A stretch of 38,423 nucleotides of DNA from a virus (Duplodnaviria > Heunggongvirae > Uroviricota > Caudoviricetes): the IMG/VR virus record IMGVR_UViG_2778261634_000009, positions 1 to 38,423 of that record. The stretch is one strand, 5' to 3'. Position numbers and translations under genes: made by a program. Of the stretch, positions 2,638 to 34,802 are shown piece by piece. The notes under the pieces are model-generated. The model worked only from the letters and a program-made list of their open reading frames with translations. It did not search any database and was not told the origin of the DNA. Each line of letters starts with the position of its first letter. Within the stretch, counting starts at the first letter, position 1.

Positions 2638-2813
2638 ATCGCATTCAGATATTTGTTTTGATTCACTGATGGAAAAGAATTTCTCTTAAGCAATTCCTCT
2701 CTCGATGGCATTGGCTTTACGCGTTGGCGAATAATCATTTCTGCCGGAAGAATGCCGGGATTGTATGCAAGTCCTCTCATGGTAAATTCCTCAGTCATTA
2801 CTGATAGCGCCAT
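2613..2813 (-). CDS. hypothetical small protein
   Basis: 66-aa ORF in the operon; overlaps the start of the Ea22-like gene by about 25 nt, start uncertain. Confidence 0.35.
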
Positions 2814-3087
2814 AGCGTGAGCGGTAATTACGCAGGCGCGGGTCGATATATTCAGGGAATTTGTCTATTGTCGCTTTTCGCAACGGTCGCATTGCTGTTT
2901 CGTTTGTTCGGTCCCTCTCATCTTTTAACGCGAGCTGTATATCGCGTCGGTACATCCGTTCTGCTTTTGTTTCTGGTGTCAGGGCAAGAAACGTGTCGAA
3001 AATGTTTTTGATATTTTCCAGCACCTCCGACTTGGAGCTACCGGAGCAGTTGCGCGGGTCATCCGCACCATATAGAGGCGCTGGCAT
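2791..3087 (-). CDS. hypothetical phage protein
   Basis: 98-aa ORF in the minus-strand early-left operon, tightly packed. Confidence 0.5.
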
Positions 3088-3110
3088 AATGGGAGCCTTA
3101 TTTTCAGTAA

Positions 3111-3698
3111 TCAGAAAGGAGGGTAATCGTTCTGGCTGTAACCATAATCATCTGCATGATTCTGGCTTACGTTTTTAGAGCGATTGTCTTTATCTTTGAG
3201 GCTGGCAACCATGTTGGCGATAGTTTCTGGTTGCTTGCCTTCCGCCTTTTCTTTAAGGGTTTGACCTGTTTGTGCAATAAACGGGATGCGTATTTCCATC
3301 TGGTAGCTGTCTGCGCCAGTCTTTTTGTTTGTGGTTAATACTTTCTGGAGCACTAACCCGATTTTCTTTCCATGAAATTCAGGTGCAACAAATTTACTGG
3401 CTGAAACCATATGTTGCGTTAATTGTCCAATCCCAGCACACCCCATCATGGCGTGAACGACATTTGCGCCAAACTTGTTTTCCGTTCCGTCATTTTTCTG
3501 AACACAGACGCTAAGATATTGGATTTTACGTCCGTCGTCGGATTCGCCAGAAAACTCAATAAATTTGGCTCCTTTTTCTGATTGCTTTAGTTCTGCTTCA
3601 GCAATGGTAATGATATGAGCGCCAGTTTCGTTAATAAAACCACCTTGCCCTGCGGTCAGTGCTGCTTCTTCGTTATAAGTAAAAATCACGTTGCTCAT
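3111..3698 (-). CDS. SSB-like / DUF669-type protein, partner of the Sak4-like ATPase
   Basis: 195-aa ORF immediately downstream of and overlapping the Sak4-like gene; C-terminus ends DDYGYSQNDYPPF, reminiscent of the acidic DDDIPF tip of SSB proteins. Confidence 0.6.
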   Translation of the reverse strand: MSNVIFTYNEEAALTAGQGGFINETGAHIITIAEAELKQSEKGAKFIEFSGESDDGRKIQYLSVCVQKNDGTENKFGANVVHAMMGCAGIGQLTQHMVSASKFVAPEFHGKKIGLVLQKVLTTNKKTGADSYQMEIRIPFIAQTGQTLKEKAEGKQPETIANMVASLKDKDNRSKNVSQNHADDYGYSQNDYPPF

Positions 3699-4375
3699 GC
3701 GGCGTTTTCCTTAATTTGATGAACATTATTGATGCCGTAGTAATCACAAACAGTGGCATCGACGAAAGAGAGATCGTTATCAATCTCATTGGAATCAAAC
3801 ATTCCCATTGGGGATTTAACAGTGTCTGCACCGTTGTTTTTCGTGGTGAAAAAGAACTGGTCATCGCGGGTAAGAGTGCGAAGAACTATAGTAAACATGC
3901 CTTCGACAGTGATTTTCTCGTCCAGCATTTTGCCGATAGTTTTCATTTTCACGCGCCCCATAGGGGTTTCTTCGGTATGTGCAAGAAAATAGACTCTCAG
4001 GTCATCAGGTGCATCCTGTGCAGCCTTAATCACCTCCCATGCGTGGCGGCCTATCTCAGTAAATTTATCAAACGATTTTTCTTCTGAGCGGCGCATAAAC
4101 TCATTGCTCATCACATACTGGAAGTCATCAACAATAACGATTCTTTTTCCGTATTCGTGAGCACGCTTAATTACAGCAACTATTACGTCCCATTTGTCAG
4201 TGGTAACTACGGTTCCTTTTTTTGCTCTGGCATCCCATGCAAGCCAGTCTTTTGATTTAAATGGTAGCGGCTTGCCTATTGGTTTTATAAGTATTGCTTC
4301 CTCTGGATTGATATTTCTCATGCTGGTTGATTTTCCGGTGCCAGATTCACCGAGTATTAATATCGCAGTTCCCAT
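3695..4375 (-). CDS. Sak4-like RecA-fold ATPase (phage single-strand annealing / recombination protein)
   Basis: 226-aa ORF with Walker A GESGTGKS near the N-terminus and hhhhDD Walker B (IVIVDD); sits where erf or bet lie in related phages. Confidence 0.8.
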   Translation of the reverse strand: MGTAILILGESGTGKSTSMRNINPEEAILIKPIGKPLPFKSKDWLAWDARAKKGTVVTTDKWDVIVAVIKRAHEYGKRIVIVDDFQYVMSNEFMRRSEEKSFDKFTEIGRHAWEVIKAAQDAPDDLRVYFLAHTEETPMGRVKMKTIGKMLDEKITVEGMFTIVLRTLTRDDQFFFTTKNNGADTVKSPMGMFDSNEIDNDLSFVDATVCDYYGINNVHQIKENAA

Positions 4376-4383
4376 AATTTGCC

Positions 4384-4584
4384 TCAGAATGGTAATTCGG
4401 ATGAGCAGGAAAGAAACTCGCGCTCATTCATGCGCTCTCTTTGTGCCTGCCATAAACAAAGTTGTTTCTTTGATTTATCTCCCGCCTTACGCCAGTAACG
4501 AGCCTCAGCAATGTGATATTCTCTTTTTAATCGACTTAACTCTGGAGTTTTCGCCAGTTCTACCGGAATCATTTTGACCTCCAT
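4384..4584 (-). CDS. hypothetical small protein
   Basis: 66-aa ORF between kil-like and Sak4-like genes. Confidence 0.45.
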   Translation of the reverse strand: MEVKMIPVELAKTPELSRLKREYHIAEARYWRKAGDKSKKQLCLWQAQRERMNEREFLSCSSELPF

Positions 4585-4682
4585 TTTCTGTAGGCTTCTA
4601 CGGCTTCACGAAACATCTTTTCATCGCCAATAAAAGTGGCGATAGTGAATTTAGTCTGGATAGCCATAAGTGTTTTATCCAT
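4569..4682 (-). CDS. kil: Kil-like host-killing (FtsZ-inhibitor) small protein; start chosen at internal Met with AGGAG upstream
   Basis: MDKTLMAIQTKFTIATFIGDEKMFREAVEAYRKW resembles lambda Kil as remembered; located directly downstream of cIII as in lambda; the ORF track extends the frame upstream to 4808. Confidence 0.45.
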   Translation of the reverse strand: MDKTLMAIQTKFTIATFIGDEKMFREAVEAYRKWRSK

Positions 4683-4815
4683 TTTTGGGAACTCCTGGCT
4701 GATTAAGTATGTCGATAAGGCGTTTCCATCCATCACGTAATTTACGTGTGATTCGTTCAAGTAAAGATTCGGAAGGGCAGCCAGCAACAGGCCACCCTGC
4801 AATGGCATATTGCAT
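4675..4815 (-). CDS. cIII: CIII protein (inhibitor of FtsH-mediated CII degradation)
   Basis: MQYAIAGWPVAGCPSESLLERITRKLRDGWKRLIDILNQPGVPKNG matches lambda CIII as remembered; AAGGAG Shine-Dalgarno 6-7 nt upstream of this ATG; the track ORF 4675..4917 is an upstream extension. Confidence 0.8.
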   Translation of the reverse strand: MQYAIAGWPVAGCPSESLLERITRKLRDGWKRLIDILNQPGVPKNG

Positions 4816-4997
4816 GGTGTGCTCCTTATTTATACATAACGAAAAACGCCTCGAGTGAAGCGTTATTGGTATGCATATAAAAAAGCCCTCACACTGGAGG
4901 GCAAAGAAGATTTCCAATAATCAGAACAAGTCGGCTCCTGTTTAGTTACGAGCGACATTGCTCCGTGTATTCACTCGTTGGAATGAATACACAGTGC

Positions 4998-5186
4998 TTA
5001 TTCGTCATGCATTTCAGGTAATTCTTCGTATTCGACGCCCCATACGTTTTCACACCAACTAACTCGCTCATATCTTTTACAGAAATCAGACCACATAACT
5101 TGTGTTCCATCATGGTTTGTTATTATTTCTGTAATATCACCAACACTAACAAAACTGGTATTAGAAGCAGTTATTTTTACTTTCAT
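4998..5186 (-). CDS. hypothetical small protein
   Basis: 62-aa ORF in AT-rich stretch of the early-left operon. Confidence 0.4.
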   Translation of the reverse strand: MKVKITASNTSFVSVGDITEIITNHDGTQVMWSDFCKRYERVSWCENVWGVEYEELPEMHDE

Positions 5187-5476
5187 TACTCATCTCCAAG
5201 AGCTTTGCTAATTGCTGACTGTGCTTTCGATACTTCATCAGGATAATGGTCATTCCAGTTTTGCTTGTATGCCTTGTTTAGCATCGCTTTCATGGCATTT
5301 AAAAGGTCAGGTGCTGCCGCTATTAGATTGGCATCTTCAATGCATTGAACTTCCTCACAGATTGCAATATACGAACGCCAGCCTGTGCCATTTTCAAGTG
5401 AGTCTGCCTGGATGATTTTAATCTCATCGCCATCCATCATTATTTCCCACTTACCTTCAGTACCTTTAAATTCCAT
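5186..5476 (-). CDS. hypothetical protein
   Basis: 96-aa ORF, early-left operon. Confidence 0.5.
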   Translation of the reverse strand: MEFKGTEGKWEIMMDGDEIKIIQADSLENGTGWRSYIAICEEVQCIEDANLIAAAPDLLNAMKAMLNKAYKQNWNDHYPDEVSKAQSAISKALGDE

Positions 5477-5515
5477 GTTAGCCTCTGTTGTTTATGCCAA
5501 AAATAAAGGCCACCA

Positions 5516-5767
5516 TCAGGCAGCCTTGTTGTAAATGTTGCAGGTATCAAGTAAGTAATTAGATGGAGCGCCATAAATTATGAATTCATCGTTTGTCGGG
5601 TCCATCTCCATCTCTTGGCCTATTGCCATTCTTGCGTCAGTGTCATCAGAGGCGAAGCATAAAACAGCCCACGCACCCATTGTTTTAAAAAGAACTGCAA
5701 TTGGCTGTGGTTTTACTGAATTTGCGTTAGCGCGAAAATCACAAATCGCACTTTCATGAAATTCCAT
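5516..5767 (-). CDS. hypothetical protein
   Basis: 83-aa ORF, early-left operon. Confidence 0.5.
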   Translation of the reverse strand: MEFHESAICDFRANANSVKPQPIAVLFKTMGAWAVLCFASDDTDARMAIGQEMEMDPTNDEFIIYGAPSNYLLDTCNIYNKAA

Positions 5768-5880
5768 ATATCACCCCTCATACAGTGGTTTGCTGCTTAA
5801 TTTAATTTTCTGGCGACCAACACAAGTCACACCCATTTCACTGCGTGGCTTGCGGTAGTAAATACGGTTATTTATGTAAT

Positions 5881-5903
5881 AAAAAACCCGCCTTAGCGGG
5901 TTA
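5881..5903 (-). terminator. intrinsic terminator immediately after the first pL gene (tL1-like)
   Basis: Minus-strand RNA reads UAA UAA CCCGC-UAAG-GCGGG UUUUUU: GC stem, 4-nt loop, U6 run, starting right at the stop codon. Confidence 0.6.
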
Positions 5904-6347
5904 TTATTTCTTTGGATTTAGCTTTTCCATGTTCTCTGCGATCGTACCTATTCTTGACCTTATTGTTGGAACATCAATTCCTCTCTGTATGTCTACATTT
6001 AAAGACATAAGCTCTCTGCTCCATCCTGCGATCGCATCGTGAAATTGCCTTGCCCTGCTTGCTTGTCTACGTCTGCTGCTTTCAAGCTCTGTAAGCATTT
6101 GCTTTGCTTCGATCTGAGACTTGCCTTGCCCAACTCCCAATGCATCGATTGCACATTGCTTCATCTCTGCTTTTATCAAAGGGTGAAGATTTTCAGCGCC
6201 AATAAAAATTACCTCGTCTATGCTTTTAAAAAGCAGAAGGCAATCAGTAACAACTTTGGTTCTTTTATCATCACACCTTACCTCTACCGAAGGTACGCCG
6301 CCATATTGCTTAACTCTCATTGCCGTATAAACTGTAGCACTCTTCAA
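5904..6347 (-). CDS. hypothetical 147-aa protein, first gene of the leftward early operon (N position), TTG start
   Basis: TTG start at 6347 preceded by AAGGAGG with 5-nt spacer; followed directly by an intrinsic terminator; no N-terminal arginine-rich motif, but an internal arginine-rich segment SSRRRQASRARQFHDAIAGW. Confidence 0.6.
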   Translation of the reverse strand: MKSATVYTAMRVKQYGGVPSVEVRCDDKRTKVVTDCLLLFKSIDEVIFIGAENLHPLIKAEMKQCAIDALGVGQGKSQIEAKQMLTELESSRRRQASRARQFHDAIAGWSRELMSLNVDIQRGIDVPTIRSRIGTIAENMEKLNPKK

Positions 6348-6504
6348 ATCAGCCTCCTTTTTCTTTTTCTATATCAAAAAGCTGCTTTGCTTTTTGTGAC
6401 TAAAAGCAAAAAAGCCTTCTCGCTAATGAGCAGCATTGCCGTTCATCCTGAACCCGCCGCGCTCCCGACGCATGGTTTAATGTCGCGCCGTTCGACATGG
6501 CTTA

Positions 6505-6538
6505 ACTATATCCAAAGCTATTATTGCTGTAAATAGCT
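6505..6538 (-). promoter_or_regulatory. OL operator and candidate pL promoter
   Basis: Inverted repeat AGCTATT-N9-AATAGCT at 6516..6538; on the minus strand a -35 TTTACA (6533..6528) and -10 TATAGT (6510..6505) with 17-bp spacing overlap it. Confidence 0.5.
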
Positions 6539-6671: not shown

Positions 6672-7403
6672 TTAGTAGTCAACTACAGACCACCAGAAGA
6701 TTCTTCCGATGATCTCTATATCGCTTAGATTCTTTTCTTCTTGTGGGTATTCCAGTGAGTTAAAGCTTCTAATGCTTACCTTGTCAGGCCCTGATCGAAA
6801 GAGAATCTTAATGCGTTTCCAGCCGTTCTCGTTAATGGCGTAAATCTTTCCGTCAACTATTTTCTTATCGTTGGTGTTAACAGCAACTGTTGTTCCATCA
6901 GGAATGTTTGGCTCCATGCTGTTGCCACGAGCCGGAAAACAAACAACCCCGCTTCCATCACTGTTCGCGCCAACTCTGCGAAGGGTTGATTTGGAAAAGC
7001 GCAACATAAAGCCGTTGTGATCTTCATCAATCACCCGACCATCCCCGCATGCAAACTCAATATCTTTAAGGTAAGGAATTTCAACTTCATCACCTCTTAA
7101 AGGCGTTCCTCCATCCCATGGGTCCAAATATCCCCACGTGCTTTCATGAGGAATAGAAGATTTTGGATTATAAGGTTCAACTCCCTCATCACGCATTGGC
7201 CCAGTTCCATCGGAAAGCCATTCCGTACGAACTCCAAGCACTTTTGATATTTCAAAAAGTTTGCGCGTATTGCGTGTTTTTCCAGACGTAAGTTTCCAGA
7301 CGCTTGGCTGAGACATGCCAACAGCATTGCCAAGTGAAGCCTGAGTAAAACCAGCCTGATCCATCGCGTATGTAAGCCTTTGAGAAAAAGTATCTAGTTT
7401 CAT
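6672..7403 (-). CDS. cI: CI-type prophage repressor (N-terminal HTH, C-terminal LexA/S24-like autocleavage domain)
   Basis: 243-aa ORF; XRE-type HTH (FTQASLGNAVGMSQPSVWKL) at the N-terminus and a C-terminal S24 peptidase-like region; divergent from cro across an operator region. Confidence 0.9.
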   Translation of the reverse strand: MKLDTFSQRLTYAMDQAGFTQASLGNAVGMSQPSVWKLTSGKTRNTRKLFEISKVLGVRTEWLSDGTGPMRDEGVEPYNPKSSIPHESTWGYLDPWDGGTPLRGDEVEIPYLKDIEFACGDGRVIDEDHNGFMLRFSKSTLRRVGANSDGSGVVCFPARGNSMEPNIPDGTTVAVNTNDKKIVDGKIYAINENGWKRIKILFRSGPDKVSIRSFNSLEYPQEEKNLSDIEIIGRIFWWSVVDY

Positions 7404-7409
7404 TCGGAT

Positions 7410-7483
7410 AACCTATAGCTACAGCTATTATTAGTCAAATACCTAAAGCTATTTACTTTCTGAATAGCTTTGGCTATTATTCT
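7410..7483. promoter_or_regulatory. OR operator region with candidate pRM (leftward) and pR (rightward) promoters
   Basis: AGCTATT-N9-AATAGCT at 7447..7469 mirrors the OL site; additional GCTATTATT repeats; pR -35 TTTACT (7452..7457) / -10 TATTAT (7475..7480); pRM -35 TTGACT and -10 TAGGTT on the minus strand placing the start near the cI ATG (leaderless, as in lambda). Confidence 0.5.
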
Positions 7484-7511
7484 GATTGTGAATTCAGCAG
7501 GAGTTATTTTT

Positions 7512-7742
7512 ATGGTTAACAAGGCTATTAAAGCGGCTATTGACTCAGTAGGAAGTCAGCAAAAGTTAGCTGATGCCTGCGGTGTTAAGCAGCCGTCTGT
7601 ATGGGCTTGGTTGCATGGGAAGAAAAGGGTATCCGCTGAAAATGCCAAGCGCATTGAAATGGCTACCAATGGAAGCGTCCCTGCATACCTGATTCGCCCT
7701 GATTTATCCGCTTTGTTCCCCAATCCGAACAAAGCAGCTTAA
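7512..7742 (+). CDS. cro: Cro-type repressor
   Basis: Start at internal Met of track ORF 7470..7742, AGGAG 9 nt upstream; 76 aa with HTH (QQKLADACGVKQPSVWAW); divergent from cI. Confidence 0.8.
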   Translation: MVNKAIKAAIDSVGSQQKLADACGVKQPSVWAWLHGKKRVSAENAKRIEMATNGSVPAYLIRPDLSALFPNPNKAA

Positions 7743-7861
7743 TAAAGCAAATTTTTATACCGAACGGCCCGGTATACGGTCGGGTGCCCGGCGTGGTCAT
7801 GGATGACTGTCAATGGTGCACAATAAAAAACCAAATTATTTACCTATGGAAATAGTAAGAA

Positions 7862-8158
7862 ATGGAACAAACAAGTTACAGCAAACTATCACAGCGCGAC
7901 GTTGATCGCGCAGAAACAGATTTACTCATCAACCTGTCAACGCTTACCCAGCGCGGTCTGGCAAAGATGATTGGCTGTCATGAATCGAAGATAAGCAGAA
8001 CGGACTGGAGATTTATTGCTTCGGTCTTGTGTGCTTTCGGAATGGCATCAGACATCAGTCCGATTAGCAGGGCTTTTAAGTATGCGCTTGATGGACTCAC
8101 AAAGAAAAAACGCCCGGCGGCAACCGAGCGTTCTGAACAAATCCAGATGGAATTCTGA
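7862..8158 (+). CDS. cII: CII transcriptional activator
   Basis: 98-aa ORF whose C-terminus KKKRPAATERSEQIQMEF matches lambda CII as remembered; HTH in the middle; immediately downstream of cro. Confidence 0.85.
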   Translation: MEQTSYSKLSQRDVDRAETDLLINLSTLTQRGLAKMIGCHESKISRTDWRFIASVLCAFGMASDISPISRAFKYALDGLTKKKRPAATERSEQIQMEF

Positions 8159-34733: not shown

Positions 34734-34802
34734 AGTTGAAGCCCCAACTGCTGGAACAGTCAGGGCTTCGGTATCGTAAAACCACGCATAGGAATTAACG
34801 AC

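Follow-up and report, generated by a model that had tools for sequence, protein, structure and literature searches.

The window, by which we mean the whole 38,423-nucleotide (nt) stretch of DNA analysed here, is the IMG/VR virus record IMGVR_UViG_2778261634_000009, and it carries the lambdoid immunity region and leftward early operon of a tailed bacteriophage (Table 1). Our interest lies in the beginning of that operon, where the leftward promoter pL is followed by a short leader, a gene for a 147-amino-acid (aa) protein and an intrinsic terminator. This order resembles that of the lambda N and P22 gp24 loci with nutL and tL1 (PF25694, PF11438), which likewise present a promoter, an RNA element, a first gene and an intrinsic terminator. 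A first-pass annotation made from the sequence letters had described the first gene past pL, with its TTG start and AAGGAGG Shine-Dalgarno sequence, as well as the strong terminator directly past it, and all of these are in place. It had also recognized no canonical N, and had offered two possibilities: that the protein is a structurally atypical antiterminator, or that it is an accessory and possibly RNase-like product in a phage that arranges antitermination by other means. We favour a form of the second possibility. The phage is likely, with good confidence, to be a lambdoid mosaic of P22 and HK022 character that has no N protein and antiterminates via put RNAs, in which case the 147-aa protein would be accessory.

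Table 1. Features of the window (positions are those of the whole stretch)
Feature	Position	Strand	Remarks
sar RNA, antisense RNA of the P22 immI (ant) region	34734..34801	-	Rfam, 81 bits
cII	7862..8158	+	
putR antiterminator RNA (predicted)	7757..7825	+	between cro and cII
cro	7470..7742	+	
CI-like repressor gene	6672..7403	-	PHROG transcriptional-repressor matches; part of lambdoid immunity region
pL-like sigma-70 promoter	6505..6533	-	TTTACA-17-TATAGT; 10/12 consensus matches
putL antiterminator RNA (predicted), HK022 type	6424..6498	-	about 75 nt, two stems; homology and covariance model
Long AU-rich hairpin, then U-run	6376..6420 (core stem 6410..6386, 9 base pairs)	-	just 3' of putL
Shine-Dalgarno sequence AAGGAGG	6353..6359	-	5-nt spacer to TTG start
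147-aa protein gene, PHROG 13686	5904..6347	-	TTG start 6347..6345
Intrinsic terminator, tL1 equivalent	5878..5902 (stem-loop and T-run 5902..5885)	-	directly past stop codon
Second pL-operon intrinsic terminator	5506..5527	-	3' of 83-aa phrog_2471 gene
Lambda cIII thermoregulator	4770..4828	-	Rfam RF01804, 88.5 bits; at cIII start

Phage HK022 reads through intrinsic and Rho-dependent terminators with cis-acting put RNAs only and no dedicated phage protein, and put RNA binds the zinc-binding domain of the beta' subunit of RNA polymerase (PMC9378689). When phage genomes were searched with BLASTN, window positions 6504..6367 proved to be 96.4% identical to the pL-putL region of HK022, HK75 and O276, and putL is annotated at the matching region in the HK75 and O276 records. 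The O276 record presents pL, putL, the nun promoter and nun in this order and places putR between cro and cII, and the putR of the window is nearly identical to this annotated element. The position of pL also agrees with the pL annotated in O276. Its transcript should start at about 6498, and putL begins at precisely this predicted +1, 6 nt past the -10 hexamer.

In a base-for-base alignment, the window putL is the same as HK022 putL at positions 20-74. Stem I (6480..6498, minus strand) differs by two compensatory A-U to U-A flips (pairs 3-19 and 5-17) and by a one-base shift of the 5' end, and the same 5-17 flip is carried by the Erwinia phage phiEt88 and several IMG/VR loci. Bases A9, U28, G35, G45, A64 and U68 of HK022 putL are all unchanged in the window, and mutations at U28, G35, G45, A64 and A9 inactivate put in HK022 (PMC9378689). 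Because the stem I region forms part of a short RNA triple helix in the cryo-electron microscopy structure of the HK022 system (PMC9378689), the flips may change third-strand contacts.

Additional evidence comes from an alignment of 15 putL and putR sequences drawn from the window, HK022, phiEt88, HK639 and IMG/VR loci. RNAalifold recovers the two-stem put structure from these sequences with 16 consensus pairs, 10 of which show compensatory changes. A covariance model built from the alignment has exactly two matches in the 38-kilobase window, one being putL (101 bits, E = 9e-20) and the other putR (81.9 bits, E = 1e-15). Single-sequence minimum-free-energy folding of either RNA gives values no better than those of shuffled sequences (z about 0), and thus the case for put is made by homology and covariation, not by folding energy. 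Rfam 15 produced no put match in the window at gathering thresholds.

The closest known RNAs are the put elements of HK022, HK75 and O276 and the putL-like RNA of HK639. The window phage shares with HK022 the location of putL at the start of the pL transcript, the location of putR between cro and cII, the two-stem architecture and the absence of an N gene. Specifically, none of the scanned open reading frames (ORFs) of the leftward operon, from 2791 to 5767, matches an N or Nun family in PHROGs, and one 55-aa ORF matches nothing. Judged from these sequences, it is almost certain that HK022-type putL and putR RNAs would provide antitermination in this phage, and an N gene is probably missing because such RNAs already override terminators. 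The two phages differ in the gene after putL, which is nun in HK022 and something else in the window, and in the repressor, operators and promoter. Since the operator and promoter sequences are unlike those of HK022, the window phage is expected to have a different immunity.

A 32-aa ORF (MSNGATLNHASGARRVQDERQCCSLARRLFCF) overlaps putL on the minus strand (6400..6498). The equivalent stretch is annotated elsewhere as a coding sequence, called 'translation protein' in Salmonella phage UPF_BP1 and 'hypothetical protein' in S9-5, ABTNLsp11242 and CobraSix, and the same putL stretch is called 'regulator' in an E. coli genome. These entries probably represent put RNA that has been mis-annotated as protein-coding.

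Two further elements of the leader had been read as a nut-like site for the 147-aa protein. One is the boxA-like TGCTCATTAGC at 6432..6422, which we take to resemble the rrn-type boxA, and the other is the hairpin TTTGCTTTT-AGTCACA-AAAAGCAAA at 6410..6386. Both exist where the first-pass annotation placed them, but putL (6498..6424) lies within the coordinates that this annotation gave for the whole locus and had been missed. We compared these elements across put sequences and among 32 IMG/VR loci that encode a homologue of the 147-aa protein (labelled below by L numbers), and the nut-like interpretation was not supported. The first bases of TGCTCATTAGC (UGCUC) are the 3' arm of putL stem II, and this arm co-varies with the 5' arm across put sequences. 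In locus L033, for instance, GUGCU...GAUGCAC takes the place of GAGCG...GCUGCUC. The ATTAGC tail of the motif varies among other putLs.

The hairpin, which in its extended form folds at -16.5 kcal/mol (z = -2.5), is identical base for base in HK022, and record X16093 from 1989 annotates it as 'put. nutL equivalent'. The first-pass annotation arrived at the same reading independently, and later put work makes it unnecessary. Homology to HK022 ends right after GATATAGAA, at about window position 6369 and ahead of the nun promoter. Beyond this point, the nun promoter and nun of HK022 are replaced in the window by the Shine-Dalgarno sequence and the 147-aa ORF. Because the hairpin stands before nun in HK022 and in L022 and is absent from N-type loci such as L013-L019, it is part of the put leader and not of the 147-aa gene. 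The Escherichia phage APC_JM3.2 (Lederbergvirus) is 96.5% identical to the window over the pL-putL leader (the first 230 query bases), and the repressor genes of the two phages are equally long.

Each distinct put leader that we folded (those of the window, L012, L020, L022, L024, L027, L032, L033 and L036) forms a long hairpin of 14-18 base pairs (bp) that begins 10-15 nt past putL stem II, with z = -2.5 to -5 relative to shuffled sequences. These hairpins belong to three unrelated sequence families, and in two of the families UGAUAGA or UGAUAUAGA comes next. The leader of lambda N contains a hairpin that is sensitive to RNase III, and the two arrangements are alike in that a long hairpin follows the RNA element for antitermination and precedes the ribosome-binding site from which the first gene of the pL operon is translated. 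However, there is no sequence similarity, and the resemblance noted here is one of position. The hairpin that follows putL could be a processing site like that of the lambda N leader, a pause site or an insulator for put folding.

Turning to the gene itself, we have next to no doubt that the 147-aa ORF is a genuine protein-coding gene. All of the protein, residues 1-147, aligns to profile positions 1-147 of phrog_13686, a family of unknown function (E = 4.1e-92). Among 5.8 billion proteins searched, the homologues form only 15 clusters, at 65-99% identity, and every named one is called 'hypothetical'. The clusters with a named source derive from Escherichia, Salmonella, Cronobacter and Enterobacter, and the homologue in an Erwinia phage was found separately. 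Homologues are likewise listed as 'hypothetical protein' in Salmonella phage MG40, Erwinia phage phiEt88 and Flyfo siphovirus Tbat2_3, and a 99% identical copy is present in the unannotated record of Wanchaivirus PDP110P2. When 1.84 billion cluster representatives were searched with a profile hidden Markov model, only the family itself and three short proteins were recovered, two of them probable fragments and one a fusion with an N-type arginine-rich motif. The alignment used for this representative search and for the structure model described below was made without two rows from GenBank loci. A literature search with accession numbers and the PHROG identifier returned no relevant paper, and its one match mentions only the phage name PDP110P2.

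Selection to retain the protein is evident from the comparison of homologues. Nonsynonymous divergence (dN) is 0.06-0.34 with synonymous divergence (dS) saturated, and the ratio omega is 0.04 and 0.11 in the two pairs that have a finite dS at real divergence. At least 55 residues are invariant. Of the 32 homologous loci, 26 keep a TTG start and the others use ATG or GTG; residues 2-9, which lie ahead of the first internal ATG, are largely conserved; and a GGAG-type Shine-Dalgarno sequence is visible upstream of most homologues. Given that the TTG is retained and these residues are conserved, the TTG start is very probably used. Retention of TTG in most of these loci (L005-L036) despite saturated synonymous divergence may mean that there is selection for limited or regulated translation. 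The terminator past the gene has a 7-bp stem with five G-C pairs (AACCCGC-TAAG-GCGGGTT) followed by a T-run, and it folds at -12.9 kcal/mol (z = -3.55 relative to shuffled sequences).

It is appropriate to ask whether the ORF might instead be a mere hitch-hiker, decaying or dispensable, that no longer has a function. The gene is rare: it occurs in five distinct phages among 50,697 records and in one of 185,579 species-representative genomes, and the whole module is present in 21 of 5426 complete E. coli genomes. Moreover, a truncated 89-aa allele (stop after ...TELES; locus L034, 4001..4270, protein P0021) is widespread, being found on 164 E. coli contigs, and therefore the gene is dispensable for prophage carriage. 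However, loss of function is already contradicted by the selection signal, because synonymous sites are saturated at 60-99% amino-acid identity while omega, in the pairs that allow its measurement, remains at about 0.04-0.11. The invariant residues, the conserved start, Shine-Dalgarno sequence and terminator, and a confident predicted fold point the same way, and we give the hitch-hiker explanation very little credence.

One of the short relatives, the 98-aa protein P0018, consists of an N-type N-terminal arginine-rich motif (MNAQERRRERRKTQQDEWKKENP...) followed by a central segment of the family, which runs from about residue 49 to residue 107 and stops just short of the invariant G108-W109. 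The protein probably arose in an N-type phage when a deletion brought N and the gene downstream of it together.

The genomic surroundings of the family are the most informative evidence regarding antitermination. For each of the 32 loci, we looked for put motifs in the 1.2 kilobases upstream, examined the upstream ORFs and the downstream sequence, and searched the whole locus with the put covariance model. Representative upstream proteins were compared with Pfam and PHROGs. In 15 loci the order is putL, leader hairpin and gene. A Nun-like gene (phrog_5632, E = 1e-40) stands between the hairpin and the gene in one more locus, L022. The remaining 16 loci have a genuine N-like gene (PF25694, phrog_271) immediately before the family member. 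These N proteins score 39-63 bits on PF25694 and possess N-terminal arginine-rich motifs like those of P22 gp24 or phage 21, and the put covariance model finds no match in any of the 16 loci. The stop codon of the N-like gene and the start of the homologue are 16 nt apart in the Salmonella loci L013-L019 and L035. Similarly, the homologue in Salmonella phage MG40 directly follows an annotated 'N-like transcription anti-termination protein'.

These associations bear on the proposal that the 147-aa protein is an atypical N-like antiterminator, one that would use an internal Arg-rich helix to bind the leader hairpin as a boxB analogue beside the boxA-like site and would thereby modify RNA polymerase. 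The proposal draws on the location of the gene, which is first past pL and is followed by a tL1-like terminator, on a conserved Arg-rich helix with R92, R94, R98 and R100, and on a stable hairpin 3' of TGCTCATTAGC. However, putL and putR are already present, and such elements are enough in HK022 (PMC9378689). Genuine N accompanies the family in 16 of the 32 loci, and Nun does so in one. The hairpin is found without the gene (in HK022, and before nun in L022) and the gene without the hairpin (in N-type loci), and the boxA-like bases are a co-varying arm of put stem II with an unconserved ATTAGC tail. Neither N_peptide nor N36, nor any other Pfam family, matches the protein even at E <= 10. The first-pass annotation correctly reported an Arg-rich stretch near the C-terminus (SSRRRQASRARQFHDAIAGW, residues 90-109) and no N-terminal arginine-rich motif, residues 1-30 having no Arg cluster. 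The protein shows no sequence or profile similarity to N or Nun. Lambda N is largely unstructured on its own, in contrast to the beta-sheet domain and helices predicted for the 147-aa protein, and the family lies directly downstream of true N genes in the N-type loci. Since the family sits behind putL, behind putL and Nun, or behind a true N, we consider it very likely that the protein is not the antiterminator of the window phage. The atypical-antiterminator proposal is largely refuted by this co-occurrence and retains only a slight chance of being correct.

Whatever the antitermination system, the gene is the last before the first pL terminator in all 32 loci examined. A G+C-rich stem-loop with a T-run is visible by eye within about 70 nt past the gene in most of them; L021 is without a clear terminator there, and L034 carries the truncated allele. 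Because the gene and its terminator hold the last slot before tL1 regardless of the mode of antitermination, they constitute a stand-alone cassette. Downstream neighbours vary even among loci with copies that are about 99% identical, and therefore there is no fixed partner gene. Other put phages fill this slot with unrelated genes: nun in HK022, a 74-aa ORF in APC_JM3.2, gp45 and gp44 in HK639, gp50 in CobraSix and an HNH endonuclease in UPF_BP1. Profile comparisons of HK639 gp44, CobraSix gp50 and Nun with the 147-aa family revealed no homology.

To characterize the protein further, we modelled it with AlphaFold2 from the family alignment and obtained a mean predicted local distance difference test score of 85. 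The model comprises a four-stranded sheet (residues 5-49), a helix (56-72), a long helix (76-121) and a final helix (126-143), and the N-terminal domain modelled alone has a predicted template modelling (TM) score of 0.72. The isoelectric point is 9.4 for the full protein and 10.5 for its C-terminal half. Hydrophobic residues recur along the long helix at a spacing of 3-4 (L85, L88, A96, A99, F102, I106, W109, L113, L116 and I120). On the basis of this spacing and the predicted secondary structure, F102 and W109 probably occupy core positions of the heptad, and the arginines between residues 92 and 100 are probably exposed. Foldseek with the full model against BFVD gave nothing below E = 0.02 and TM scores of at most 0.4, and fold searches produced generic matches only, with no specific structural relative and no HEPN among the matches listed. 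Neither the single sequence nor a profile found a meaningful match in sequence searches of Pfam, NCBIfam, PADLOC and PDB. The best match, TIGR03623, has E = 0.043 and 12 bits relative to a cut-off of 300, and we dismissed it. Homology to N, gp24 or another characterized family had been named in advance as grounds for abandoning the first-pass proposal; no such homology was found, and the protein is a member of PHROG 13686.

The suggested choice between an N-like and a HEPN fold is likewise answered by neither, as the model is a sheet, a helix and a basic helical hairpin. A HEPN-like role, as an RNase toxin or an effector of abortive infection, had been suggested by an R-x4-H pattern. This pattern does exist in the window allele as R98-x4-H103, within a C-terminal half that is basic and helical, but it is not a motif of the family. 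Homologues have H, N, S or R at position 103 while its neighbours are invariant, and R98 is invariant in 15 close homologues but is Ile in phiEt88. HEPN domains are larger, all-helical bundles, and the 147-aa protein has an N-terminal beta-sheet domain and a C-terminal half made of a two-helix hairpin. No defence profile in PADLOC-DB matches at E <= 10. We therefore regard a HEPN activity as highly improbable. Of the accessory-gene possibility, the part that survives is provision of antitermination by other means, which would be the putL and putR RNAs; the RNase part is lost with the unconserved His.

A better, although still improbable, alternative is that the protein is a Nun-like exclusion factor that has replaced nun and blocks the transcription or growth of competing phages. 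The gene occupies the exact nun slot as the first gene past putL and the leader hairpin, with HK022 homology ending just past GATATAGAA, and cargo in this slot varies among put phages. Like HK022 Nun (phrog_5632), the protein is small and basic and has an Arg-rich segment, in this case a helix. However, Nun has an N-terminal arginine-rich motif and a functional C-terminal Trp, whereas the Arg-rich segment of the 147-aa protein is internal, and F102 and W109 are at heptad core positions. There is no detectable homology, the hhalign probability between Nun and the family being 0.2%, and PHROG 13686 is the only PHROG match. In L022 the gene coexists with a Nun-like gene. Our scan found no promoter-like site between pL and the 147-aa gene, and thus, unlike nun, it is not expected to be expressed in a lysogen as long as pL stays repressed.

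Given these findings, we propose the following scheme, in which the put steps are predicted by analogy with HK022. The transcripts from pL and pR would each carry a put RNA that folds into two stems and binds the beta' zinc-binding domain in cis. The polymerase so modified would resist pausing and termination with no need for a phage protein, and would read through the terminators at 5902..5885 and 5527..5506. The latter must also be passed to reach kil, Sak4, SSB and abc2. We infer from the genomic context that this readthrough does not require the 147-aa protein. The gene would fill a slot for variable cargo that follows the antitermination device and precedes the first terminator of the pL operon; HK022 has nun in this slot. 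The gene and its terminator move as a unit. With the first terminator lying downstream of it, the gene should be expressed from the moment pL becomes active, independently of antitermination, as an immediate-early gene.

Small size, the absence of a catalytic signature, the predicted fold and the conserved basic surface suggest that the protein has no enzymatic activity and works by binding to a macromolecule. Its target might be a nucleic acid, a host factor, or part of a defence system or of a competing phage. Its role would likely be exerted at the very start of the lytic programme in host takeover, anti-defence or inter-phage competition, and the data could fit these three alike. We put forward the classification as an early, binding-type effector as a tentative proposal. 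Even less likely, although not negligible in our estimation, is the more ambitious possibility that PHROG 13686 represents an undescribed class of immediate-early effector, carried directly behind whichever of put RNA, Nun or N a lambdoid phage uses and ahead of the first terminator. With its conserved hairpin of basic helices, such an effector might target a competing phage, a host defence, or the machinery by which the host transcribes and terminates. As a separate part of the same possibility, the long hairpin past putL may have an unrecognized function within the put module, for instance in processing, pausing or insulation.

Three points should be weighed against the assignment of antitermination to put RNAs and of an accessory role to the protein. 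First, put function in the window phage is presumed from near-identity to HK022. Second, the conserved basic helix of the protein could contact RNA or RNA polymerase and modulate transcription despite the co-occurrence statistics. Third, the common 89-aa allele fits an accessory role but is silent on mechanism.

The remainder of the window conforms to a mosaic lambdoid genome. According to PHROGs, the leftward operon contains phrog_2471, phrog_1273, phrog_10407, kil, a small ORF that matches a PHROG labelled 'recombinase', Sak4, SSB and abc2. The 83-aa gene of phrog_2471 (unknown function; 5506..5767, minus strand) is bracketed by the intrinsic terminators at 5902..5885 and 5527..5506, and therefore the start of the pL operon resembles a string of single-gene cassettes, each ended by a terminator. 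The pentapeptide AIAGW is common to the N-terminus of cIII and residues 105-109 of the 147-aa protein; about 0.5 such coincidences are expected by chance, and we dismissed the match. The presence of the sar RNA indicates that the window combines a P22-type immI region with HK022-type put antitermination.

The put elements of this phage are a new instance of a well-described system, and the protein is a member of an existing, uncharacterized PHROG. The fresh observation is the strict position of the PHROG 13686 family, which is found behind putL, Nun or N and ahead of tL1. The puzzle of the missing N is settled by known biology, and no long-standing question is opened or closed by it. There is nevertheless a lesson for annotation, which is that lambdoid genomes seemingly without N deserve to be checked for put RNAs. 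Furthermore, an orphan family with so unusually strict a position would have an immediate-early function, and the nun slot of HK022-type phages is a site for exchangeable cargo.

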